Below, one piece after another: positions 1-49,184 of a DNA stretch of 64,000 bases. This stretch comes from a virus, in IMG/VR virus record IMGVR_UViG_3300037608_000032, positions 1 through 64,000 of that record; one strand, 5' to 3'. The translations under genes and the position numbers were made by a program. Below the pieces are notes generated by a model, which was not told the origin of the DNA, did no database searches, and saw nothing but the letters and a program-made list of their open reading frames with translations. Positions within the stretch are counted from its first letter, which is position 1. Each line of letters opens with the position of its first letter.

Positions 1-440
1 AGGTAAGCCCCCCAGAGGTTAGCTCCACGGAGGTTCGCCCCCCGGAGGTAAGCCCCCCAGAAGTAAGCCCCCCGGAGGTTAGCTCCACGGAGGTTCGCCT
101 CCGTGAGGTTCGCTCCCGTGAAGATAGCCATCTGTATGTCTCCACCAGTGAGATCCGCCCCCGAGAGGTCCGCCTCCGTGAAATCTGCCCATCGAAGGCT
201 TGCCCCCCGGAGGTCCGCCCCCCGGAGATCCGCGCCGGCCCTTACGATGCCCCCCCCCTCGGGTGGGGGGGCGACAGGGCGGGGGATGTCACTGATTCCG
301 TTTATGTCCTTTCCTCCAGTATCCCCGACGGGGGAGCCCTGGTTGGCCTTGAGCGCGCCTCTCCATCGAGAGGCCCTGGCGGCCCACGACTCGACGATGG
401 AGATGGCCTGGGCGCGAGATAGGGTTTGGTTCGCGTTCAC
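1..440 (-). CDS. pentapeptide-repeat protein (runs off window start)
   Basis: Not in ORF track. GTG at 440 overlaps the TGA of the upstream gene; reads ...ADLRG ADLRG ASLRW ADFTE ADLSG ADLTG...ANLTE ANLRG ANLRG AYFWG AYLRG. Confidence 0.9.
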   Translation of the reverse strand, partial: MNANQTLSRAQAISIVESWAARASRWRGALKANQGSPVGDTGGKDINGISDIPRPVAPPPEGGGIVRAGADLRGADLRGASLRWADFTEADLSGADLTGGDIQMAIFTGANLTEANLRGANLRGAYFWGAYLRGANLRGANLWGAY

Positions 441-646
441 TTTGCCTCTCCCGAGATCCATGCCGATAGGTCCGTGTCGCGGATCCAAGCCCGGCCCTCC
501 TCAACGTTTTTCTCGCGATCCCACAGGCTCACGAGGAAGCTCCCGTCGTCCCTCTCCCACGGGCTCGTTCCGGGGAGAATGCGGGCCTCGATGTCTCCGG
601 CAACTCTCCCGCCGCTGCTGAAGTACTGTTTGATCCTGTTTTCCAT
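437..646 (-). CDS. hypothetical protein (69 aa)
   Basis: GGAG RBS before ATG; coupled to the next gene. Confidence 0.7.
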   Translation of the reverse strand: MENRIKQYFSSGGRVAGDIEARILPGTSPWERDDGSFLVSLWDREKNVEEGRAWIRDTDLSAWISGEAK

Positions 647-1169: not shown

Positions 1170-2252
1170 TCAATCCAGCCGAATTGGCATCACGATGAAC
1201 AGGCACTCGGTCTTGTCCTTGGGCCGAATGACGCACGGTCCGAGAGCTTCACCGAGCTCCATCGTCGCCACGCCGTCATCGAAGGCGTTCAGCGCGTCCA
1301 GCAGAAACGCGGCGTTAAGGCCCATGGTCGCGTCTTCCCCGGTCATCACCACGGGAACCGGGTGCGAGGCCTCGCCGTACTCGACAGACCTGGACGAGGC
1401 CAGAAGTTCCTCGCGGGTGAACTGAACTTTGATGGTCGACGACTTGTCTCGAGCCTCCAACGCCACGCGCTTGAGGGCTTCGACCAAGGCCACGCGGTCA
1501 ACTTCAACTCGGCGAAGGTGAGACTGTGGGAGTACCCGACGGTAGGGCGGGAACTCTCCGTCTACGAGACGGGCGTGGAGCTGGGCTCGGTCGGTCTTGA
1601 CCAGGATCATGTTGGACTTCCCGAACGAGATGGACGCGGGGACCTCGTCAGATCCTACCATCCGCTTGACCTCCTGGAGGGTCTTCCGGGAGACCAAGGT
1701 CTTCGGGGGGATCTTGAAGTCGCCCTGGAACTCGGCTTCGGAGTACGCCATCCGGGACCCGTCGGTACTGACCAGCCGGAGGTGCCCATCCTCGGCCTCA
1801 AAATGGCATCCGTTGATCCCGTATCGGTTGTCTTCGGCCGGGATGCAGAAGTAGACCTGGTCGATCAGGTGGACGAGGCCCTTGACGACCATGGTAGACC
1901 TGGCGACGAACGGAGGCAGCGCCGGGAAGTCCTTGGGATCCAGCCCGAAGGTCTTGAAGTGGGCTGGGCCACAGTCGATGACCATGCGGTAGTTGTCTTC
2001 CTGCTTGACATCAACCGTCCCTGACGGGAGCGATTTCACGACCTGGAAGAAGTGCCGGGCGTCCACCATGATCGACGAAGAATCGAGGCCCACCGTGGCC
2101 GCGCACTTCACGGCCATGGTGATTTCAGAATCGGTGGAGACCACCTCGATCTCGTGCTCGGTTACGCGAAGCAGGGTCTTGGCGTTTTTGCCAATGCCCT
2201 GAATCATGGCGAGCGCGACGACAATATCGGCCTGGGTACAAGTGAATTGCAT
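1170..2252 (-). CDS. dnaN: DNA polymerase III beta sliding clamp
   Basis: 360 aa; STDSEI, DFPALP, RYGING, VSTDGSRMA, LVDGEFPPYRRVLP, GLNAAFLLDAL and C-terminal IVMPIR typical of DnaN. Confidence 0.93.
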   Translation of the reverse strand: MQFTCTQADIVVALAMIQGIGKNAKTLLRVTEHEIEVVSTDSEITMAVKCAATVGLDSSSIMVDARHFFQVVKSLPSGTVDVKQEDNYRMVIDCGPAHFKTFGLDPKDFPALPPFVARSTMVVKGLVHLIDQVYFCIPAEDNRYGINGCHFEAEDGHLRLVSTDGSRMAYSEAEFQGDFKIPPKTLVSRKTLQEVKRMVGSDEVPASISFGKSNMILVKTDRAQLHARLVDGEFPPYRRVLPQSHLRRVEVDRVALVEALKRVALEARDKSSTIKVQFTREELLASSRSVEYGEASHPVPVVMTGEDATMGLNAAFLLDALNAFDDGVATMELGEALGPCVIRPKDKTECLFIVMPIRLD

Positions 2253-2325
2253 GATTTCTCCTCAAGAGAACCGGCTACCCTGAAGACAGGCGAAGAAGGA
2301 GAGAATGCCCGCCCCAGGGTGTCGG

Positions 2326-2643
2326 CTAGTTGGTTGCAGGTGTATAGTCTTTTCGATGAAGTCGAGCCCCGGTCTCGGGGTCAAAGACAATGATGACTCC
2401 GACGTCCAGGCAGAGCCACATCATGTAGCACCAGCTCGGAGGCGAGTGCTTCGACGAGCCAGTCTTCCACTGGCTTATGGATTGCGGGGGGACGCCGAGC
2501 ATGTCGGCGATGTCCTTGTGCGTCCGTTTGGTCTTGCCCTCTTCGGGGGGCAGGGCAAGCCAGAGCTCGACAAGCTGAGACCAGAGCGAGAAAAGGTTAG
2601 GGACAGCGCCGGGCTGGCAGGGGGCGGGCAGGATTCGAGGCAT
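2326..2643 (-). CDS. XRE/Cro-like HTH transcriptional regulator
   Basis: THKDIADMLGVPPQSISQWKTG...P...LCLDVGV; CAGGAG RBS. Confidence 0.8.
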   Translation of the reverse strand: MPRILPAPCQPGAVPNLFSLWSQLVELWLALPPEEGKTKRTHKDIADMLGVPPQSISQWKTGSSKHSPPSWCYMMWLCLDVGVIIVFDPETGARLHRKDYTPATN

Positions 2644-2677
2644 TGAGTTCTCCTGCCCCGTAGTAGCCTCTACCCGT

Positions 2678-3244
2678 CTACCCGAAAAGTGCAACCTGAC
2701 GAGGCGCGGGCTTCTTGCGCCAGTAGCCGAGATCCGTCAGCGCCTGGCGGTGCGCCTTAAGGTCTGCCACGTCGGCCTCGGTCAGGACCGCGAGCATGGC
2801 CTCACGCTGGCGCTTGTCTGCCACGGTGAACAGGCGCTCGATGGTCGCTTCAACGGACTGACGAGCCAGCGACGACCCGACGGACTCGTGAGACCCGAAC
2901 CCCTGGCAAGAGATAGTCACGAGCACCTTCTCGTCAGACGTGCCTTCGTGACCCCGTTTCTTGAACGACCGACGGTAGGTCTGCTGCACGGCCAGGGCTT
3001 GCCACCCGAGCCAGTTCGACAGAAGCTTCTCGGGGTTGCGGACTTCCGAGAACCGCTGAAACTTCGGGAACTGCTCTACGATCCGGGCGATGAAGTCCGA
3101 CCTGGCGTCCTCTCGGTCCGCCTCGTTCTCCATCTTGGCGAAGAACTTGTAAGCGAACCGGTCGATCTGCTTCTGGTGCGACAAGACGAAAGCCCATGCG
3201 TCGGCATGGTCGGGGGTGAGCTTGAGGGGGATCGATGGGGTCAT
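2678..3244 (-). CDS. ECF-type sigma-factor-like protein (region 2 present, region 4 truncated, C-terminal clamp-binding motif)
   Basis: QKQIDRFAYKFF..EADREDARSDFIARIVEQFPKF..LLSNWLGWQA..YRR matches the ECF sigma2 pattern; DKRQREAML resembles the start of region 4 with no HTH after it; ends QVALFG. Confidence 0.65.
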   Translation of the reverse strand: MTPSIPLKLTPDHADAWAFVLSHQKQIDRFAYKFFAKMENEADREDARSDFIARIVEQFPKFQRFSEVRNPEKLLSNWLGWQALAVQQTYRRSFKKRGHEGTSDEKVLVTISCQGFGSHESVGSSLARQSVEATIERLFTVADKRQREAMLAVLTEADVADLKAHRQALTDLGYWRKKPAPRQVALFG

Positions 3245-3702
3245 GCGAACCTCGGAGCAGGTTGGGCGGGGCGGGGGAAGATGTCGATGTCGGGCGGGCA
3301 CCCGTGGATGTCGGTCCAGAGTCTCGTCACGAAGCCCCGGACAACGCCGGAGACGTAGTGCCCGTCCAGCAGGAACCAGATGGCCGCCGACACGTTCCGG
3401 TCTTCGGCGTGGGCCTCGTAGAAGGCCCTGATAGTTAGGTTCAGGTGCGACCAGTTACCGGCCCATCGCCGGAGCTGGTGCGCGACGTTGACCGAGCACC
3501 CTTCGCCACCATGGAGCGCCGTGGTGAGCGCCTCGAACCGGACCTGAAGCGGCTCCCAGGGGAGCGCGCGCAGAGGGGCGAGCTCCAGGTGGAGTGCTAC
3601 CACCTCGGCGATGTCGAGGATCTCGGGCGGCGCGATTGACGCGGGGTGCGTAGGCCGTCGGCGGTTTCGGGGGTCGATCAAGGCTGGGCTCCTTCGGGGC
3701 AA
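3241..3702 (-). CDS. hypothetical protein
   Basis: Fills gap; ATGA overlap with the sigma-like gene; start uncertain. Confidence 0.6.
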   Translation of the reverse strand: MPRRSPALIDPRNRRRPTHPASIAPPEILDIAEVVALHLELAPLRALPWEPLQVRFEALTTALHGGEGCSVNVAHQLRRWAGNWSHLNLTIRAFYEAHAEDRNVSAAIWFLLDGHYVSGVVRGFVTRLWTDIHGCPPDIDIFPRPAQPAPRFA

Positions 3703-3764: not shown

Positions 3765-4895
3765 TCAGCGAGCTCGAAGGGATTCCTGCACCTTCCTGGC
3801 GATGTCCGACTGGAACCCGCCGATCTGGTTGGCGACTTCGAGCACCCGATCGTTACCGTCTGCCATGGCCCGGACTTCTCGGACCATCTGCGAGAGGGCG
3901 TTGTTGGCTTCGGCCAACTTCTGGACGTTGGCCAGCCCGGCGGCAGGGACGTTGCTCATCAGCTCGACAGCGGCGTCAAGCACCTTGAGGGCGTCCGCAA
4001 GCGCCGGGGCAACTGCCTTGCACACAAGAGCGTGAACGGCGGGGCGCTCTTCCGGCTTCTGCCAGAGGGCGTCGGTCAGCACCAGCAGGTCGTCGGTCGT
4101 CGCGAAGTCCCTGCCTGCCAGCGCGGCCATAGCCTGCACCAGCTTCGCGAGCTTGCAGAGCCGACGGTCGGAGACGTAGATCCCGAGCTCCGTCGCGATG
4201 GCGTCCTGGAGGTCCAGGAGCGCATCTTCGACGGTCTCGGGGATCGTGACCATGGAGACCGCTTCGCGAGCCGTCTCAAGGTCAGCATGGGTCAAGGTGA
4301 CCGACACGACGGGGCGGCCATGGGACCGAAGGAGCGCCTTCTTGGCGTCCCGGTCCTTGATGGGGTTAACCCACCGGCGCAACATGAACCGGTCATAGAG
4401 GGCATCCAGGGTGTTGTCGGCGGGGAGTTCGTTGCTGGCCCCGATGACGATCTCGAGGGGGCAAGTCTGGCGCGTGGTCCCGTTGTCGAAGGCCCGCTCG
4501 TTCAGGAGGGTCAACAGGGCATTCAGGATCGGCGACCCTGCCTTGAAGATCTCGTCCAAGAAGGCCACCTGAGCGGTGGGGAGGTAGCCCTCTGTCTTCC
4601 GCTCGTAGCGGTCTTCCTGGAGGCCCGTGATCGAGTAGGGCCCGAACAGCTCTTCGGGCATGGTAAATGCGGTCAGCAGGCGGTCGAAGGTCTTGGACCC
4701 GAGCGCACCTGAGACGGCGTTGGTGAGGGCACTCTTGCCCGTTCCTGGGAGCCCGAGAAGGAGGACGTGCTCGCGGGCCAGGAGAGCAACGCAGAGGACC
4801 GTGGCTTCGGCCTGGCGCTCGAAGAAGTTCTTCGAGATGTCGGCTCGAAGGTTGGCGACTTTGACGAGGGCTGCGGTCTGGGCGGGGGTGAACAT
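3765..4895 (-). CDS. MoxR/RavA-family AAA+ ATPase
   Basis: GLPGTGKS Walker A, PEELFGP, FLDEIFKA Walker B, LLNER, GASNELP, ALYDRF. Confidence 0.92.
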   Translation of the reverse strand: MFTPAQTAALVKVANLRADISKNFFERQAEATVLCVALLAREHVLLLGLPGTGKSALTNAVSGALGSKTFDRLLTAFTMPEELFGPYSITGLQEDRYERKTEGYLPTAQVAFLDEIFKAGSPILNALLTLLNERAFDNGTTRQTCPLEIVIGASNELPADNTLDALYDRFMLRRWVNPIKDRDAKKALLRSHGRPVVSVTLTHADLETAREAVSMVTIPETVEDALLDLQDAIATELGIYVSDRRLCKLAKLVQAMAALAGRDFATTDDLLVLTDALWQKPEERPAVHALVCKAVAPALADALKVLDAAVELMSNVPAAGLANVQKLAEANNALSQMVREVRAMADGNDRVLEVANQIGGFQSDIARKVQESLRAR

Positions 4896-4920
4896 CGGGG
4901 CTCCTTGCTGGGCGGGCGGG

Positions 4921-4978
4921 TCAAGAAGCAACTGCTCTTGATGTCATAAGTATAACTTGAATCACGTTAGACTGTCAA
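4921..4978 (-). promoter_or_regulatory. early sigma70-type promoter with operator and 5' hairpin
   Basis: TTGACA-18-TATACT; TAAC-gtgattcaa-GTTA; TCAAGAGC-AGTT-GCTTCTTGA hairpin. Confidence 0.85.
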
Positions 4979-5207
4979 CGGGTATCCAAGAAGATTCTCG
5001 CACCTGTAGCGATTTATTTTCATCGACCGGGAGCACCTCCGACACCGGGAAGGCCGTCCCAGCGTACCCAGGACGAAGCGCCTGCGAGTCGAGGAACACG
5101 CTGTAGACCTCGGGCTCGCGGTAGTCGGGCGGGGCCATGCGGACGTAGTTGATCGAGCCGGGCTGGCCCTTGGCTTGAACTCGGGCGCCGGGGAGAAGAT
5201 GAGACAC
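4962..5207 (-). CDS. hypothetical protein (81 aa)
   Basis: AGGAGG RBS before GTG. Confidence 0.7.
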   Translation of the reverse strand: MSHLLPGARVQAKGQPGSINYVRMAPPDYREPEVYSVFLDSQALRPGYAGTAFPVSEVLPVDENKSLQVRESSWIPVDSLT

Positions 5208-5215
5208 AGGACCTC

Positions 5216-6772
5216 CTACCGTCTGACAGGAATGACCTTGGACGCGGCCTTTTCCGCATCTTCGGCCTTGTCGATGTCTATCGATTCATCGCAGAAGCTC
5301 CGCACCGCCGGGGAGATGGACCCGCCACCTACCGTCATTCCGAAGACCCGCAGGCCGAGGGCCGCCTTGGCGGCCTTGACCATGTCGAGCACCTTCGGCG
5401 ATGCGTCAGCGCACCCGTCAGTGATGAAAAGCAAGTCCGCGCGGGGCTGGCTCTCCAGATACTCCAGGCCCCAGAACAAGGGCGCGTTGAAGTCCGTCCC
5501 GCCCCGTGCGTGCCGGGTGCAGAGTTCAAGGGCCAGGTCTATGACCTTGCCCCAAGGCTTCGCGGTCGCTCCCTTCGGCGATGTCGAGGGGAGGGTCTCA
5601 ACCTTGCCGTTGGTCCGGGCAATCCAGGCGTCAGAGATCCCGTGGTTGAACATGACCACGGCGACTTCGCGCTTCTCTTTCTGCCCGAGCTGGAGGCACG
5701 CGAGAATCGCGGCCTTTGCCCAGGTCTCGCCAGCGCCTTTCATGCTGCCCGACTCGTCAGCGAGGATGCAGATCGGGCCCTTGCCCTGCGGGGTCTTACC
5801 TTCGACCTTGTACTGGGGGAGGGACCTTTCAGCGAGGCCCTTCATGACGAGCACCTTCAGCGCCGGGTTGCCGAGCAATGCGAGCTGAGAGGGAAGCACG
5901 CGGGGAAGGTCGTTACCAAGCGTGACACCCGAGATGAGCCCGCAGGCGCGGGGGTCCTTGCGGGCCTCGGTGCGCTCGGCAAGGCGAACGAGCTTCCCGG
6001 CCTTGCGAAGGACCGCGCGAAGGTTCGGGTTGCGGAGCAAAGTCTGGGCAAGCTCCAACCGCCTGGAGTCCTTCTGCTCATGCGTCGGAGGCGCATAGGC
6101 GCTTCCAGGTGCGAGCGACTCCATGGCCTCGCGGGCTTCCGAGACCTGCTTCGATGCCCTGTCACAAGCGCCACGGAGAGCAGCTCGTAGCTGCTGACCG
6201 GCCTTGCCGAGTTGGTCAGAACGGCGCTGGCCTTGACCGTCGCCTTCTTCGTTGCCATCGCCGGGGGTGGGCTGGCCCTCACCAGCACCGGAGCCCTGGC
6301 CCGGCTGCTGGGCTTGCTGTTCGGCTTCCTGGTCCACCGACTTGAGAAGTTCGGGGAGCCTTCCGGCGATGGCGGAAAGAACCTCTTGCGCTGCCATCGC
6401 CGAGAAGTCGGGATCGCCCTTGACAGCCTCACGAAGAGACGACCACTCCGGCAGCTCGTCGGCGATGGCGTGCGCGGACGGTGCCCAGCCCTTCGCGTCA
6501 GCGACCTTCTCGGGGTCGTTGTACAACCGGGCGAAGGTCTCAGCTCCGAAGGTCTCGGAGTCGGTCTTGACCGCCTGCATGGCGGCCTCGCGCTCTTCCA
6601 CGGTCGCCAGTTTCCGCATGGTGGGGCGATGGTGCTCGCGCACCGCCTCCGCCACATGGGAGACCTGCGAGGCCATCGCCGGGAGCCGAGCGTCGAAGAG
6701 GAACCGCTCCCACCTGGACGGGGTGTAGGCCAGGTCGGTGGAAGCCTGAAAATGAAAGGCGGGGGCGCTCAC
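5216..6772 (-). CDS. VWA-domain protein (ViaA-like partner of MoxR ATPase)
   Basis: MIDAS motifs DESGSM, GGTDF, FITDG; GNDLPRVLPSQL; KGPICI. Confidence 0.9.
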   Translation of the reverse strand: MSAPAFHFQASTDLAYTPSRWERFLFDARLPAMASQVSHVAEAVREHHRPTMRKLATVEEREAAMQAVKTDSETFGAETFARLYNDPEKVADAKGWAPSAHAIADELPEWSSLREAVKGDPDFSAMAAQEVLSAIAGRLPELLKSVDQEAEQQAQQPGQGSGAGEGQPTPGDGNEEGDGQGQRRSDQLGKAGQQLRAALRGACDRASKQVSEAREAMESLAPGSAYAPPTHEQKDSRRLELAQTLLRNPNLRAVLRKAGKLVRLAERTEARKDPRACGLISGVTLGNDLPRVLPSQLALLGNPALKVLVMKGLAERSLPQYKVEGKTPQGKGPICILADESGSMKGAGETWAKAAILACLQLGQKEKREVAVVMFNHGISDAWIARTNGKVETLPSTSPKGATAKPWGKVIDLALELCTRHARGGTDFNAPLFWGLEYLESQPRADLLFITDGCADASPKVLDMVKAAKAALGLRVFGMTVGGGSISPAVRSFCDESIDIDKAEDAEKAASKVIPVRR

Positions 6773-7647
6773 TTCGACACCGCCAGGAGGCGCATGGCCT
6801 CGTCCTGGCACTCGGTGACCTTGGCTCGGAGGTCCTGCAACGAGACCTCGAGGGTCTTCTCGTAGAGGTCCGCGAGCCCGAGGAGGGTCGCGAGCTGGCC
6901 CAGGACGTTGGCCTGGGAGTCCGTGCGGATCTTTCTCGAAGTCGTCCGCCAGTCTTCGAGCTGCTTCTCGACATCGAGGAGCTGACCGAGGACGTGGTCT
7001 TGGACGCCAGCCCCGACGCCTTCGCGGCTATCCCCGTCGTTCTCCACCATGCAGAGGTGGAACTTGCACCCGCCCAACTGGCCCACGATCCTCTTGAGGC
7101 GCTTCACGATGTCCAGCGAGGCCAGCGGGGCGAAGTAGATCCCGCCCTGGCGACGGAGGGAGATAGCCGACGCGGCTTCGAGCTGAGGCACGAGCACCGA
7201 GGGACGAAGGAACCTGTGATCGAGGTACTTCAGGAAGTCGTCGGCCGACTTGATGAAGCCCTGGCCTACCTCGCTCGGGTACGCGTTGACCCACTCCCTG
7301 CTGACCGTGTCGTAGCACAGGGTCTCGGTCTGGCCCCACGCTACCTCACGAGACCCCTCCCGGCGATGCTGGAGGATACCGACGTACACCCTACCGCCGT
7401 CGATGGCCGTGACTTCGGCCTTGTAGCGGTCGTTGTTCCCGCGACCGGTAGCCCAATTCCCAGCGGCCTTGCGGATGGCCGACACGGGGTCGATGTCGGG
7501 GACCGAGATATCCGTGAGACCTTCGGACGCGAGCACGTCTCGAAGGTGCTCTGGCGTGACCTGGCTGGCATCAAGGTCCCACCAACAGAAGGTCCCCATG
7601 CGGGGGTCGATGGAGGTGACGTCGGGGGAGGTGGAAGTGAAGGGCAT
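6769..7647 (-). CDS. hypothetical protein of the type found beside phage/ICE MoxR-VWA pairs
   Basis: CAGGAG RBS; GTFCWWDL, LRRQGGIYFAP, C-terminal coiled coil; coupled to the VWA gene. Confidence 0.75.
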   Translation of the reverse strand: MPFTSTSPDVTSIDPRMGTFCWWDLDASQVTPEHLRDVLASEGLTDISVPDIDPVSAIRKAAGNWATGRGNNDRYKAEVTAIDGGRVYVGILQHRREGSREVAWGQTETLCYDTVSREWVNAYPSEVGQGFIKSADDFLKYLDHRFLRPSVLVPQLEAASAISLRRQGGIYFAPLASLDIVKRLKRIVGQLGGCKFHLCMVENDGDSREGVGAGVQDHVLGQLLDVEKQLEDWRTTSRKIRTDSQANVLGQLATLLGLADLYEKTLEVSLQDLRAKVTECQDEAMRLLAVSK

Positions 7648-7685
7648 GATGACTCCTGATAGGGGAAGGTGGTAGCAGGTGAGAG

Positions 7686-7925
7686 CTACTTGGTGACGAC
7701 CGTGCAACGGACGGTCTTGAAGGTGCCCTTGCCAGCCCCGCAGAAGACCTCGGTGCCGGGCTCGACATCGACGACGGCGTCGAGGACTTCGTCTCCCCGA
7801 ACACGGGGGATCGAGAGGAACCGAGCAGAGTCGCCAGAGCCGATGCGAGCCCACCAATTCGGCTTGCCATTGGCGTGGAATCCAGTGTTGCTCATGCGGG
7901 AGGTAGTGACGAGGTGGCTGGACAT
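7686..7925 (-). CDS. hypothetical protein (79 aa)
   Basis: AAGGAG RBS; first gene after promoter. Confidence 0.75.
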   Translation of the reverse strand: MSSHLVTTSRMSNTGFHANGKPNWWARIGSGDSARFLSIPRVRGDEVLDAVVDVEPGTEVFCGAGKGTFKTVRCTVVTK

Positions 7926-7950: not shown

Positions 7951-8009
7951 CATGAAGAGCAACCGCTTTTCATGCTCTAACAGTAACACGATTCAGGTTA
8001 GCCTGTCAC
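7951..8009 (-). promoter_or_regulatory. early promoter with operator and 5' hairpin
   Basis: GTGACA-18-TACTGT; TAAC-ctgaatcgt-GTTA; CATGAAAAGC-GGTT-GCTCTTCATG hairpin. Confidence 0.75.
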
Positions 8010-9684
8010 TAGTTATCTGCACCTGTTCGCACTTTTCTTTCACGACCCTCTTTTTTCTCGCCTTCGGAGGTTCGGAGCACCAGACCAACCTCGCGACGCA
8101 CGCCATGCCCTGCTTGTCCACCCGTGGGCCTGGCCGGCGCACGTACCGACCGGCGCTATGGATGCTCGGGTCTGCATGGCCTCCGACTACGCCGTGGGCG
8201 TGGAGCGCGTCCAGGACCACGCGGTCAAGGGACGCGAGCATCCGCTGGACGTGAGGATCGGCGTAGAAGGCGCGTGGGTCCCACCTTCCTTGACGGAGCT
8301 TCACGACGACCTGCACGCCCGTTCCTGACGTCCTGACCATGGCCATCGTACCCGACAAGACCGGGTGGTTTACCAGGATGGCCTGGACTTCTTGGGCAGC
8401 TTCTGCAAGGTGCTTCCACTCGGGCATGGTCTCGATATCGTCGATGTCAACGCCGACCCATTCCGTGTAGACGGGCACGAAGCCGGTAGGCTGAAGGATG
8501 TTCATGCTCTCACGACCGGACGAAAACTCGCGGACTCCGGTGAACCCGTGCAGGTCCATGGAGACGTACAGGTCGGGAAGAACGGCTTTCGGACGGCAGA
8601 AAAACATCATCGTGTTCGTGGCCGCCAAGGCACCGTAGTAGACCTTCTCGTTCTTGGCGCGGCCGTCGGCATAGTGGAGAAGGTCCGTCAACGAGGTAGC
8701 AGCGGAAAAAGCCCGGTGGAACCCACGTCTTACAGACTCGTTCTCGCCACCGTAGTGCTTGCCCATCGTGAACCCGTACCCTTGGGGGCGGACTACATAG
8801 TCAGGACTGGAGATGTCCAAGGGGTCATCGTAGAAGGCCAGTCCTGACGGCTTGCCGAGTACCATCGGGGCCGGCCCGGGGTCCCCAGCTTCAAGGGAGC
8901 GGTCAACGAGAAAGAGCGCATTCGACGGGGTAGAAACAGGCACGTCCCAATAAGACCCCCTGTGGGGTAGACCGGGGGTAGCGATGCCCCCTGGGTCTCC
9001 TGACTCACAGAGTCTTAGACAGGCGGGACTGGCCTTGACTGAGACGACGGGCTGGAAGAGGACGGCAAGGTCTTCAAGGACCTTGGCCTTGCCGATGATG
9101 GTCTCACACGAGAAGCAGAAGACGTACCCGGTCTCTTGGTTGACCACGGCGTTCGGGGAGTGGCCTTCGTGGTTCGGGCATCGGATGAAGACCTTCTGGC
9201 CCTTGCGATGTCCAGGGACCTGGACTGCGGGGCCGTAGCACCGGTGGTCCTGGACTGGGGGAGCGTGCCCTTGACCTGCGAGGGCTTCGAGCACCTGCTC
9301 GGCAATGGCATGCGCTTCGGGGGTGACTCGGTAGTGGGTGCCCCTACCTTGCCCGGGGGCGAGGTCTCGAACCGGGTAGCCGAGTCGGGCAGCTTCAGGG
9401 GTGGTGACTGGCTCGGCTCCGAGTAGAGCGTAGACGTCGGGGAAGACCTGGCGGGCGATGTCGCGGGAGATGGTCCCGTGCGGGACGAAATAGCCAGCGC
9501 ATCGCTCGGAGATGTAGGAGCCATCGGACGCGAGAAAGGCGCGGACTACGTGGTCGTGCAGGATGACGATGGCAGCGCGGAGTCGGGTGGGCGTGAAGCC
9601 CAGCAGTTCTTCAACGAGGAGGTCAGCCCAGGTGGGGGCCTCGACTCGGGCGAGCGCAGCGCCGGTCAACGCCGATCCTTGCAT
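7993..9684 (-). CDS. AEP/RepB-like primase protein with CHC2 zinc finger
   Basis: CPNH...CFSC zinc finger; GVDIDD (DxD), RTSGTGVQ (motif II variant), ADPSIHSAGRYVRRPG. Confidence 0.6.
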   Translation of the reverse strand: MQGSALTGAALARVEAPTWADLLVEELLGFTPTRLRAAIVILHDHVVRAFLASDGSYISERCAGYFVPHGTISRDIARQVFPDVYALLGAEPVTTPEAARLGYPVRDLAPGQGRGTHYRVTPEAHAIAEQVLEALAGQGHAPPVQDHRCYGPAVQVPGHRKGQKVFIRCPNHEGHSPNAVVNQETGYVFCFSCETIIGKAKVLEDLAVLFQPVVSVKASPACLRLCESGDPGGIATPGLPHRGSYWDVPVSTPSNALFLVDRSLEAGDPGPAPMVLGKPSGLAFYDDPLDISSPDYVVRPQGYGFTMGKHYGGENESVRRGFHRAFSAATSLTDLLHYADGRAKNEKVYYGALAATNTMMFFCRPKAVLPDLYVSMDLHGFTGVREFSSGRESMNILQPTGFVPVYTEWVGVDIDDIETMPEWKHLAEAAQEVQAILVNHPVLSGTMAMVRTSGTGVQVVVKLRQGRWDPRAFYADPHVQRMLASLDRVVLDALHAHGVVGGHADPSIHSAGRYVRRPGPRVDKQGMACVARLVWCSEPPKARKKRVVKEKCEQVQITSDRLT

Positions 9685-33643: not shown

Positions 33644-34123
33644 CTAGTCTTTGTCTTCCTTGATGGCTTCGACTTCGTCGGCGTACTTGCCCTCGATGTA
33701 CTCGACCGACCTCAGGCCCTGCTCGCCGGTGTCGCGGCGCTGGGCCCAGGTATCAATGATGCGCTCGCAACCGCAGTGCAGGCACACTTCGTGGATGTGG
33801 ACCCCCCCCCCGGAGCCAAAGACCCCGGGGTTCTCTTCGCACCCGCCGACGATGTCGACGGGGGACTGCCAGTCGTGGTCTTCGTCGTCGGTGCAGTCGG
33901 GCTCTTCGGGGTCGGTCGTGACGACTACCGTGTCGACGACAACGTCTTCGTAGCCGTCTTCCGCTTCGATGATCTGGACGTCGGTCCAGGTGGTCTCGGT
34001 GCTGGTCTCCCATTTGGATGCGTCACCCTCTTCGAGGGCGGCCTCCCTGGCGGCTTCGATGGTGGGGTAATCATCGCCAACTACCTCGCCGTCGATTCGA
34101 AGGGAGTAAGTGCACTGTGTCAT
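33644..34123 (-). CDS. acidic hypothetical protein
   Basis: AAGGA RBS; very acidic; C..HDW..CLHC; first gene after promoter. Confidence 0.8.
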   Translation of the reverse strand: MTQCTYSLRIDGEVVGDDYPTIEAAREAALEEGDASKWETSTETTWTDVQIIEAEDGYEDVVVDTVVVTTDPEEPDCTDDEDHDWQSPVDIVGGCEENPGVFGSGGGVHIHEVCLHCGCERIIDTWAQRRDTGEQGLRSVEYIEGKYADEVEAIKEDKD

Positions 34124-34152
34124 GTTGTCTTCCTTGCTGGGGTGGGGTGGAG

Positions 34153-34212
34153 GCATGAACAACAACCGCTGTTCATGCACTAACTATAACTCGATTCACG
34201 TTAGACTGTCAA
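34153..34212 (-). promoter_or_regulatory. early sigma70-type promoter with operator and 5' hairpin
   Basis: TTGACA-18-TATAGT; TAAC-gtgaatcga-GTTA; GCATGAACAGC-GGTT-GTTGTTCATGC hairpin. Confidence 0.85.
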
Positions 34213-36459: not shown

Positions 36460-36920
36460 CTCCGGAACAGGTGCAGCAACTTCTCGTAGTCGGTGGGTGC
36501 CTTCAGTTCACAGCGTCGGACCATCGGGCCGGGCCGTTGACGTGGGCGGGCATCCGCATGAGGGACGGCTTGGCGGTCTGCGCCGAGCCCCTCCCTGAAG
36601 ACCTGACCGAGGATGAAGACGTGCTCGGGTGGCTCAAGCAGGAAGAGCGGTCCTGGTTCTTCGCACAAGACGCTTCCCCGGCCTGGTGCTTCGTGGACTG
36701 GCACGCTGGCCATGGGGAGCCGGTGCCTCTGGAGGACACAGAGTCGCTGGCTCTGCTTGAGGGAGACGAAGACCTGATGTTGCTTGCGGCTGCTGTCTGC
36801 CAGCTCGCGGAGCTTGTCTACCCGGACGGGTGGGCAGGGTACGAGTCTTCCGGGGCGTTGACCTTGGACGTGATCGCCGTCTACCCGATGGCTACCACGG
36901 GTCAGGACATGGAGGCGTGA
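36456..36920 (+). CDS. hypothetical protein
   Basis: ATGA coupling. Confidence 0.7.
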   Translation: MTPEQVQQLLVVGGCLQFTASDHRAGPLTWAGIRMRDGLAVCAEPLPEDLTEDEDVLGWLKQEERSWFFAQDASPAWCFVDWHAGHGEPVPLEDTESLALLEGDEDLMLLAAAVCQLAELVYPDGWAGYESSGALTLDVIAVYPMATTGQDMEA

Positions 36921-36922
36921 CG

Positions 36923-37447
36923 ATGGGGCAGGTTCAGCTCTTTGCCGACGATGCACTCGCTCAAGACGGGGCGACGTTCACCGACGACCGGCGCTACAGA
37001 TATCGACTCTGGCGGAAGTGGGGCATGGGCCAGACCGTAGCCTTCCTCGGTCTCAACCCGAGCACGGCAGACGAGTCCAAGGACGACCCTACCATCCGGC
37101 GATGCAGGAACTTCGCTCACGCTTGGGGCTTCGACGGGATGTGGATGCTGAATTTGTACGGATGGCGCTCCACGGACCCACGGGCCCTCTGGGACGGTAC
37201 GGTCTTGGACCTCATCGGGCCAGGCCATGACGAGTCCCTCGTAGACGTGAGCCGACAGGTGGCCTTCGTGGTCTGCGCTTGGGGAGCGTTCCCGAAAGCC
37301 CAGGCCCGTGGACAGCACGTCCTTGGACTGCTTCACAGCGCCGGGGTGGAGACGCGGGCGCTTGGTTTGACGGCCAGCGGGTTCCCGGCGCATCCGCTCT
37401 ACTTGCTGGCGACTTCGAAGCCTTCACCGTGGCCGGTGCTTCCATGA
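36923..37447 (+). CDS. DUF1643 protein
   Basis: YRYRLWRKW, LNPSTAD..DDPTIRRC, NLY..RSTDP, CAWG, PAHPLY. Confidence 0.9.
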   Translation: MGQVQLFADDALAQDGATFTDDRRYRYRLWRKWGMGQTVAFLGLNPSTADESKDDPTIRRCRNFAHAWGFDGMWMLNLYGWRSTDPRALWDGTVLDLIGPGHDESLVDVSRQVAFVVCAWGAFPKAQARGQHVLGLLHSAGVETRALGLTASGFPAHPLYLLATSKPSPWPVLP

Positions 37448-38068: not shown

Positions 38069-38342
38069 CCCCGAAGTCCTGCGAGCCGCGCTGTCCGTCG
38101 CCGTGCCCCTCCAGATCTCGGAGCTGGAGCGCTGCGGCGGCCCGGGTCCTTCGGAGCTCGCCGAGGCCCGCGAGGTGGGCCAGCTTCTGGCCGAGAAGGG
38201 CGACGTGCTGATGTTCAAGAGCCCGAAAGGCGAAACCGCCAAGGTCTTCGGGCGAGTCGCAAGGGCCATCGCGGTGCTCGCCTTCTGCCCGGGCGGAGTC
38301 CAGGTCTTCGGAGACCGCTACGAAGGGCATGCCGATGCCTGA
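38061..38342 (+). CDS. conserved-type phage hypothetical protein
   Basis: AVPLQI..AEKGDVLMF..LAFCPGGVQVFG. Confidence 0.7.
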   Translation: MPDPEVLRAALSVAVPLQISELERCGGPGPSELAEAREVGQLLAEKGDVLMFKSPKGETAKVFGRVARAIAVLAFCPGGVQVFGDRYEGHADA

Positions 38343-38583
38343 ACTGGCCCGTGAGATGACCCGCGCCGAATTCATGACCCAGGAGCGCAAGGCCTTCATG
38401 CGCTTCATGCGGGACGCGCCAGAGACGACGCTCGGATGGTCCGTGACCTACCGCTGCGACTGCGGCCACGTTGACCGGACGCCGTCCGACGCATGGAGTC
38501 ATGCCCAGGCCTGCGACGGGACCGGGACGAAGCCAGCGGGTCAACAGGTGCTCTTCGGAGACCCTTCCCCGGCGAATCAATGA
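38329..38583 (+). CDS. hypothetical protein
   Basis: CDCG..H..C; coupled to mom. Confidence 0.6.
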   Translation: MPMPELAREMTRAEFMTQERKAFMRFMRDAPETTLGWSVTYRCDCGHVDRTPSDAWSHAQACDGTGTKPAGQQVLFGDPSPANQ

Positions 38584-49103: not shown

Positions 49104-49184
49104 CGTTGCTCCGTTCGTTAACGTAGTAGCTACTACGGAATGACGGCCGGGACGGACCCGGCCAACAACCCGAAGGAGTCCAAC

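Follow-up and report, generated by a model that had tools for sequence, protein, structure and literature searches.

A probable ECF-type sigma factor lacking the recognition helix and ending in a beta-clamp-like motif in a dnaN-carrying phage

The stretch of DNA analysed here (the window) comprises bases 1 to 64,000 of a linear virus record in IMG/VR, IMGVR_UViG_3300037608_000032 (75,042 bases, estimated 68% complete), from a phage whose DNA is present in three groundwater metagenome DNA runs, any of which may be where the assembly came from. The left 9.7 kb of the window form a leftward (minus-strand) module of replication-type genes, including dnaN, which encodes a bacterial-type beta sliding clamp, and a gene encoding a protein of 188 amino acids (aa), P0001. 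P0001 is very probably a divergent sigma factor of the extracytoplasmic function (ECF, group 4) branch. The turn and the recognition helix of its region 4.2 have been lost, and a disordered tail containing the peptide QVALF, similar to bacterial clamp-binding motifs, is found instead. The same phage carries a recurrent candidate promoter motif, GCTACTAC, without any -35 box. Taken as a whole, the best explanation is an ECF-type sigma factor that would serve the GCTACTAC promoters and dock on a beta clamp through its tail, which we regard as a serious possibility, somewhat short of probable.

Sequence family and fold of P0001

A word-indexed search with P0001 returned eight proteins at E<=0.01, and a shallow profile of eight sequences found nothing in the PDB (best E 0.76). 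An exhaustive profile search recovered 55 cluster representatives at E<=1e-3, 24 of these at <=1e-10, which constitute a large unannotated phage family of ECF-like sigma factors, of value even without any link to a clamp. Alignment A2 comprises 37 of the 55 representatives, after exclusion of fragments, of matches in two stretches, of the 1217-aa P0059, and of several among the weakest rows. Pfam Sigma70_r2 was matched by 17 of the 37 members (best E 6.4e-13) and the Sigma70_r4 models by none of them. When the A2 profile was compared with solved ECF sigma factors, matches were obtained with SigC (2o7g, E 8.8e-4), Rhodobacter sphaeroides SigE (2q1z, E 9.1e-4), and Mycobacterium tuberculosis SigE (9m9d, E 3e-3), the SigE alignments spanning both region 2 and the helix-turn-helix (HTH) of region 4.

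The AlphaFold model of P0001 built from A2 has a mean predicted local distance difference test score (pLDDT) of 83.0, with 93-98 in the N-terminal four-helix domain and 82-92 in the C-terminal helices; it supersedes an earlier model from the eight-sequence alignment, which was poor in the C-terminal half (pLDDT 65). In a Foldseek search with the A2-based model, the leading rows were nearly all full-length ECF sigma factors (probability up to 0.98, best E 0.011), and no row reached E<=0.001. A Foldseek-independent fold search with the earlier model gave ECF sigma-2 domains as the best matches (Z 8.6, root-mean-square deviation 2.3 A over 83 residues) and sigma factors in at least 18 of the top 20 rows, although Z values of such size can arise for helical bundles. 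Since the fold evidence and the sequence-profile evidence agree, P0001 is taken to be a very divergent member of the ECF branch. The ECF-like region 2 proposed in a preliminary description of this DNA was therefore borne out, by the Sigma70_r2 matches of the relatives, by the profile comparison with solved ECF sigma factors, and by the sigma-2 fold of the modelled N-terminal domain. No match to Sigma70_r2 at E<=1 was detected anywhere in the 75-kb record, i.e. no other sigma-like gene.

The same description had reported only the start of region 4 and no recognition helix, which is essentially right, with the refinement that region 4.1 and the first helix of region 4.2 remain. With the hidden Markov model (HMM) of A2, the window protein and its relative at locus L001 (88% identical) align only to profile positions 7-160 of 186, and the match of the window protein stops after the first helix of the HTH; the relative at locus L002 aligns to positions 6-183. 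A BLASTP alignment with P0010, which is 54% identical and the closest relative whose C-terminus is complete, extends no further than residue 163 of 188, and in a MAFFT alignment the turn and the first part of the recognition helix fall in a gap of 8 columns. In the model, helices at residues 119-141, 144-154, and 159-164 are followed by a 6-residue stub (166-171), and the pLDDT is then 59 and 45. The C-terminus of most family members aligns with the region 4.2 HTH of solved ECF sigma factors. A frameshift or assembly artefact was considered and rejected, because the helix is not encoded in any other frame either and the frame is the same in an independent assembly (88% protein identity). We conclude that the turn and recognition helix of region 4.2 are lost in the window protein and its one close relative, a disordered tail standing in their place. 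In standard sigma factors, as described in the available part of PMC7892883, region 4.1 and the early parts of region 4.2 hold the beta flap.

The C-terminal tail and the DnaN clamp

The window protein ends in K-K-P-A-P-R-Q-V-A-L-F-G (pLDDT below 50 for residues 179-188), and the L001 relative ends in R-Q-V-S-L-F-A (QVSLFA). The match to QxxLF noted earlier is confirmed, one G separating it from the stop codon. The peptide agrees with Qxx[LM]F, the core of the motif by which bacterial proteins bind the clamp, and is both terminal and disordered. According to the accessible text of PMC12867686, the clamp-binding consensus is QL[SD]LF, and the variants QHDLF and QPDLF of phage Mu are experimentally required; QVALF agrees with three of the five consensus positions, with V and A at positions 2 and 3. 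Among the 230 open frames of the 75-kb record, the sigma gene is the sole frame with Q..[LM]F at most five residues from the C-terminus.

The comparison with the L001 relative over 174 codons revealed 43 synonymous and 19 replacement differences. Residues 165-188 contain eight synonymous differences (including those at V184 and L186) and three conservative replacements (K177R, A185S, and G188A), and Q, L, and F are kept; in the segment 155-162, four replacements (one from Leu to Pro) and two synonymous differences were found. Replacements prevail in 155-162 and synonymous changes in the tail, which indicates that the HTH remnant drifts and the tail is held. By this comparison, with one close relative, the tail is under purifying selection. 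Conservation of the DNA as a promoter was considered as an explanation and rejected, because the spacer from the sigma stop codon to the next GCTACTAC is 8 nucleotides (nt) shorter in L001 and the changes are codon-wise synonymous; the difference in spacing places the conservation at the protein level.

Two further peptides of this kind were found in the record. An 84-aa Cys/His-containing frame (38329-38583, + strand), with no Pfam match, contains G-Q-Q-V-L-F-G followed by eight residues, a second Q-x-V/A-L-F-G peptide. The sequence Q-R-L-L-F at the start of the frame 33644-34183 was discarded: the likely ATG, with its ribosome-binding site, comes after it, so that the peptide is probably not translated.

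In the sigma family, 3 of 61 members end in Q..[LM][FL], versus 19 of 4456 background frames, the background being open frames of at least 120 aa from 92 dnaN-bearing loci. P0034, which ends in T-Q-L-S-L-L, and P0008, which ends in S-I-S-L-F-N, are further and independent family members. The 19 background matches include eight DNA methyltransferases, one protein with a PolX-type thumb, and four members of phrog_3193, some with tails of the form Q-V-G-L-F-G(R). Most of these 19 tails are likely to be recurrent, real clamp tags, and the tail of the window sigma factor is, judged by its residues, in a style used by dnaN phages.

The methyltransferases occur on unrelated dnaN phage contigs, with tails such as QVGLFGR, QEDMF, QGLLF, QLKLFAV, QAFLF, and QYRLL, which suggests that methylation may be tethered to the clamp. 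The frequency of the same tag on methyltransferases of dnaN phages also suggests that phage clamps may serve as general docking platforms. The phrog_3193 proteins, encoded next to dnaN, have tails including QGGLFDV, QRSLFDG, and QGRLL and represent a recurrent candidate clamp client. At locus L063 (5964-6581), a 205-aa protein with a match to DNA_pol_B_thumb (PolX-type) ends in VQVGLFG, a tail in the style of the window sigma factor.

The full dnaN previously described two genes downstream of the sigma gene was confirmed; it follows the HTH gene and encodes 360 aa with all three beta-clamp Pfam domains (DNA_pol3_beta, _2, and _3; E 6e-20, 1e-19, and 4e-23) as well as a match to phrog_947 (E 2e-57). 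A total of 165 homologues were detected at E<=1e-10, of which the nearest (46-48% identical) come from metagenome contigs and metagenome-assembled genomes (MAGs). At 12 genomic loci of the nearest relatives, only dnaN is in common with the phage; these loci (L084-L095, 42-47% identity) are on MAG contigs labelled Deltaproteobacteria, Pseudomonadota, 'Enterobacterales', and Thermoleophilia. In an alignment of 35 DnaN sequences, T163, D164, R167, P235, P242, M355, and P356 are invariant, residues which we take to line the peptide pocket.

Modelling of the C-terminal part of the sigma factor (residues 130-188) with the phage DnaN gave weak support for a complex, with a median score of 0.55 compared with 0.34 for the best control, in which the same partner was paired with an unrelated protein. 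The runs have at least 86% of their contacts in common, and the pLDDT of the partner is at least 58. Of 80 solved complexes, 58 reached the mark used, as did 2 of 110 mismatched pairs; at scores of 0.60 or lower, only 7 of the 80 solved complexes reached it, together with both passing mismatches. Because beta-clamp-peptide complexes have already been solved, the pass may come from the memory of the model or from likeness. The tail may bind a clamp, a reading that we entertain rather than favour.

The GCTACTAC motif and the gene neighbourhood

The motif GCTACTAC occurs at 13 sites in the window versus 0.30 expected, and none of 100 shuffles reached 13; it was not found in the remaining 11 kb of the record. 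With six one-mismatch variants located ahead of genes, 19 sites are known, and a co-oriented frame of at least 60 aa starts within 150 nt at 18 of them. The information of the motif lies in the eight bases, in the G/A before them, and in a weak GTA slightly further upstream, and the motif stands 16-80 nt before start codons. All positions from -45 to -10 carry at most 0.4 bit, which indicates that there is no -35 box; the earlier observation of a -10-only motif ahead of many genes thus holds. The loss of the recognition helix in P0001 fits this lack of a -35 box, and the sigma factor probably reads the GCTACTAC promoters. Even without a link to the clamp, GCTACTAC would represent a clean single-element phage promoter.

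The genes behind GCTACTAC are mostly concerned with replication, recombination, and DNA or sugar modification, and some lie in the structural region; from this gene content, the regulon looks 'middle', rather than strictly late or late in the manner of T4. Two copies of GCTACTAC overlap as a palindrome (49123-49136) between divergent genes, one for each direction. A DUF1643 protein (E 2.4e-36) is encoded at 36917-37447 (+) behind a GCTACCAC variant site. No GCTACTAC-type motif was found at L002, a locus too small to define promoters.

The features of the window, together with the tagged proteins of other dnaN loci, are listed in Table 1.

Table 1. Positions of the features described in the text (window coordinates, or coordinates of the locus named)
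Feature	Position	Strand	Remarks
Pentapeptide-repeat gene	3-488	-	Runs off contig start; Pfam Pentapeptide E 9.3e-28; downstream of dnaN
dnaN, complete bacterial-type beta sliding clamp, 360 aa	1170-2252	-	Second gene downstream of sigma gene
Small XRE/Cro-type HTH gene, 105 aa from ATG at 2643	2326-2643	-	Follows sigma gene
GCTACTAC	2660-2667	-	16 nt before HTH gene start, directly after sigma stop; kept in L001
Probable divergent ECF-type sigma gene (P0001, 188 aa)	2678-3244	-	Stop codon 2678-2680
Disordered tail, residues 172-188	2681-2731	-	QVALF at 2684-2698, then G; stop 2678-2680
Sigma-4-like remnant, residues 119-171	2732-2890	-	pLDDT 82-92; stub at recognition-helix position
Sigma-2 domain, residues 11-99, four helices	2948-3214	-	pLDDT 93-98; best structural matches ECF region 2
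Conserved protein, 146-153 aa	3241-3702	-	Directly upstream of sigma gene
bpMoxR AAA+ ATPase gene	3765-4931	-	E 1.4e-56; fourth in leftward module
Host-type promoter-like site TTGACA-18-TATACT (11/12 match)	4949-4978	-	Ahead of MoxR gene
VWA gene	5216-6811	-	Third in leftward module
DUF6744-like gene	6769-7857	-	Second in leftward module
CHC2-zinc-finger primase-like gene	7993-9684	-	First in transcription order of leftward module
GCTACTAC exact sites	9899, 12349, 13881, 19248, 23604, 25646, 27260, 36091, 49129, 53596, 60100	+	Span 9899-60107
GCTACTAC exact site	49123	-	Twelfth of the other twelve exact sites
One-mismatch GCTACTAC variants	10486, 20346, 36891, 41203	+	Ahead of genes
One-mismatch GCTACTAC variants	7669, 41410	-	Ahead of genes
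DNA methyltransferases with clamp-like tails	L004 3465-4547; L005 4499-5545; L029, L030 12712-13545		Pfam N6_N4_Mtase or phrog_67
Further such methyltransferases	L035 12822-13841; L042 8448-9230; L063 4038-4886; L050 3882-4907		N6_N4_Mtase or phrog_67
phrog_3193 members adjoining dnaN	L041 12428-12937; L070 12524-13042; L082 13848-14486; L076 13150-13653		Clamp-like ends

The stop codon of the gene directly upstream of the sigma gene (3241-3702) overlaps the sigma start codon (ATGA). Its product has no match in Pfam or PHROG, two relatives of it were found, and its matches in the ESM Atlas are all below 0.9, i.e. leads only; it is likely a stoichiometric partner of the sigma factor, perhaps an anti-sigma factor or a co-factor. 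A gp33-like role of this protein with a clamp tag of its own (D-I-D-I-F near the end) was considered and rejected, since the F is absent in its relative P0186. The HTH gene product matches Pfam HTH_3 at E 0.0016, short of the cut-off, and transcriptional regulators in PHROG at E about 1e-3. Host-type promoter-like sites number four in 10.8 kb versus 1.2 expected, and the one ahead of the MoxR gene is, by its sequence, likely an early promoter of the leftward string, through which it would also drive the sigma gene.

The MoxR ATPase, VWA, and DUF6744-like genes (3765-7857) are embedded in the phage replication module, and a VWA gene also adjoins the sigma cluster at L002. The pentapeptide-repeat protein encoded at the contig start could be a DNA mimic. 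The remaining record contains helicases, a PD-(D/E)XK nuclease, an AAA_24 protein, a Toprim-DnaB primase-helicase, a DinG-like helicase, DNA methyltransferases, terminase, portal, capsid, and sugar-modifying enzymes. The reported lack of a polymerase or clamp loader in the window extends to the whole 75,042-base record, 68% complete, in which none of the Pfam families DNA_pol_A, DNA_pol_B, DNA_pol3_alpha, and DNA_pol3_delta2 was found.

Relatives of the sigma factor were found in neither the viral contigs (searched with A1, P0034, and P0008) nor the genome contigs (searched with A1), and none was detected in the phage collection by megablast or by tblastn against 50,697 phage records; the metagenome contigs contain two loci with sigma relatives, L001 and L002. 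In all three loci with visible context (the window, L001, and L002), a homologue of the 3241-3702 gene precedes the sigma gene and an HTH gene follows it. At L001 (144-650), the sigma frame extends about 90 codons upstream (P0002, 275 aa), either as an N-terminal extension or because a small additional gene lies between the 3241-3702 homologue and the sigma gene.

Mechanism, alternatives, and known systems

In the best explanation, the sigma gene would be expressed early from the host-type promoter, and its product would direct the host core RNA polymerase to the single-element (G)GCTACTAC promoters without -35, which may serve about 19 genes, including the HTH-dnaN pair directly downstream of the sigma gene. 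The tail would, less certainly, dock on a beta clamp, either the phage DnaN or that of the host. An ECF-type sigma factor without the -35 contact plausibly needs another anchor, and a clamp loaded on phage DNA would supply an upstream anchor in place of the lost contact; such a design would be a single-chain counterpart of T4 gp55 plus gp33 on a bacterial-type clamp. That clamp loading stimulates transcription via this sigma factor seems unlikely to us. We likewise think it unlikely that T4-type replication-coupled transcription was rebuilt independently here, with an ECF sigma factor that lost its -35 helix and gained a beta-clamp tail and with DnaN on replicating or nicked DNA acting as a mobile upstream activator at GCTACTAC. 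The preliminary description had proposed T4 logic assembled from bacterial parts. Its anatomy stands (the sigma-2 fold, the lost helix, the QxxLF tail, dnaN in the same string, and the single-element promoters), and the selection on the tail and the recurrence of its style on enzymes of other dnaN phages favour it further. Activation by the clamp is a weaker proposal, given the low complex score, the rarity of the motif in the family, the 92 dnaN loci without this sigma family, and a regulon that is not late.

Several observations weigh against docking on the clamp. Alternatively, an ECF-like sigma factor would read GCTACTAC with a tail unrelated to the clamp, the resemblance being fortuitous and dnaN a mere neighbour in the replication module; we hold this to be possible, if rather doubtful. 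The tail could then contact RNA polymerase, the 3241-3702 protein, the HTH protein, or, through its WRKK stretch, DNA non-specifically, and it is the upstream gene and the HTH gene that are the conserved neighbours of the sigma gene in 3/3 visible loci. QxxLF is kept in the one close relative, but a clamp-type motif is missing in 58 of 61 family members, and the agreement of QVALF itself with QL[SD]LF is partial. When independent lineages are counted, the motif is only modestly enriched (2 of 55; binomial P 0.023), although this comparison is conservative, because the background is rich in probable clamp tags. No member of the sigma family was found within 10 kb of dnaN in 80 viral and 12 genomic loci, except for a weak match at L063 (19103-19654, E 0.006). 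The L001 contig, 1,450 bases long, stops short of where a dnaN could be seen; at L002, the relative has a complete sigma-4 domain without such a tail, a methyltransferase rather than dnaN comes after the HTH gene, and no dnaN occurs in the 10 kb downstream examined. L002 is compatible with the clamp idea, but it is a single case. The complex score of 0.55 falls in a range where predictions are wrong more often than they are right, except for guesses that were already likely, and with an unrelated protein the same partner still reached 0.34. Moreover, GCTACTAC precedes helicase, nuclease, AAA_24, and DinG-like helicase genes as well as dnaN; as the replication genes and dnaN are needed before replication, a strict dependence on the clamp would be circular. 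On the other hand, a tail without a clamp function would leave unexplained why Q, L, and F persist, and why V184 and L186 have changed only synonymously, next to a segment that drifts, and why the motif is terminal and disordered, as clamp tags usually are. Near-identical QVGLFG tails occur on recurrent enzyme families of other dnaN phages, and the tail of the sigma factor is the only C-terminal motif of this type in the phage.

Two other explanations concern the sigma factor and the motif themselves. P0001 may not be an initiation factor at all but a sigma-like decoy or regulator (cf. the PhyR sigma-like domain), which would sequester a host factor or an anti-sigma factor, shut off host transcription by occupying core RNA polymerase, or block the host clamp via its tail. 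P0001 itself matches no sigma family in Pfam at E<=0.1 and no PHROG family at E<=0.01, and with its DNA-reading helix gone and one family member weakly matching PhyR_sigma-like (E 0.015), such a role is conceivable; overproduced MuC of phage Mu is lethal by titrating the clamp, according to the available text of PMC12867686. However, the sigma-2 domain is modelled at very high confidence and aligns with -10-reading domains, most relatives keep the complete two-domain ECF layout, and the phage contains an abundant orphan promoter-like motif with no other sigma candidate, so that we consider a decoy very unlikely. It is similarly improbable in our judgement that GCTACTAC belongs to another reader, such as the XRE-type HTH protein or a factor encoded in the third of the genome that the record lacks, or acts as a signal at the RNA level, with the sigma factor serving a few other promoters. 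The link between the sigma factor and GCTACTAC comes solely from their presence in the same record, itself 68% complete, which also weighs against the best explanation; the position 16-80 nt before start codons would suit a leader-RNA or operator element as well, and the doubled copy at 49123/49129 is palindromic. Yet the element is asymmetric, 8-9 bp long, and strand-specific to the next gene (18/19), like a -10-type element; it has no partner box, matching a sigma factor without a -35 reader, and it is kept next to the sigma gene in L001.

If docking on the clamp is true, P0001 would be the first sigma factor known as a beta-clamp client, in a compact system of two proteins, sigma factor and DnaN, acting with core polymerase. 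The ability of an ECF-type sigma factor to work without -35 recognition would then be explained, and the coupling of transcription to replication would prove to have evolved repeatedly, by different routes.

To our knowledge, clamp-activated transcription was long thought peculiar to T4. As described in the available parts of PMC2988020 and PMC7892883, T4 late promoters, which have no -35, are activated by the gp45 clamp together with gp55 and gp33; gp55 corresponds to sigma-2 and carries its clamp epitope at the C-terminus, behind a flexible linker, and gp33 binds the flap as a mimic of sigma-4 without reading DNA; the available text of PMC2988020 further reports that engineered gp55-gp33 fusions are functional and that gp55 has basal activity without the clamp. 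Both gp55 and the window sigma factor have a sigma-2 domain and no -35 reader, with candidate promoters without -35 in both cases; in both, a disordered linker leads to a conserved C-terminal epitope, of a predicted clamp type here, and the clamp is phage-encoded. With its sigma-2 domain, sigma-4 remnant, and tail, the window protein has the layout of a natural single chain like the gp55-gp33 fusion. In contrast to the T4 system, the window sigma factor is of ECF descent, its motif is of the beta-clamp type, and the clamp, a DnaN dimer, is bacterial in type; Pfam revealed neither a polymerase nor a clamp loader in the 75 kb, no gp33 counterpart was identified, and the regulon includes replication genes instead of being purely late. 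Homology to gp55 was not detected, with no PHROG family at E<=0.01 and nothing by tblastn in the 50,697 phage records.

The preliminary description knew of no example of such logic built from bacterial parts, which is now outdated. According to the accessible text of PMC12867686 (2026), MuC of phage Mu needs clamp-binding motifs and the Escherichia coli beta clamp for late transcription with sigma-70. Because of this precedent, beta-clamp-assisted transcription is no longer without example, whereas a sigma factor as the client still is: in the literature searched, subscription journals excepted, no sigma factor with a beta-clamp motif is described, and the papers found that join clamp-binding motif, sigma factor, and phage name no sigma factor as a clamp client other than T4 gp55, which uses its own clamp type. 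As far as the accessible text describes them, MuC and Mor resemble the window system in their terminal Qxx-LF-type motifs, bacterial-type clamp, and promoters with a -10 but no evident -35. MuC differs in being a DNA-binding activator that works with sigma-70, while the motif of the window phage is located on the sigma factor itself, and Mu uses the host clamp, while the window phage carries its own dnaN. The window sigma factor has no Pfam match to the Mor/MuC family at E<=0.1.

Among bacterial proteins, the ECF sigma factors (SigH, SigL, and SigE of M. tuberculosis and sigma-E of E. coli) resemble the window sigma factor in their two domains, in the sigma-2 fold, in having regions 4.1 and early 4.2, and in overall length (188 aa for the window protein). 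Unlike them, it falls below the Pfam thresholds, has the turn and helix of region 4.2 replaced, ends in a clamp-type tail, and is associated with single-element candidate promoters; no recognisable anti-sigma factor for it was found. It is like the beta-clamp clients with a terminal QL[SD]LF in that the motif is terminal and follows a disordered linker, and in that Q, L, and F are kept, the residues V and A at positions 2 and 3 being those that differ.

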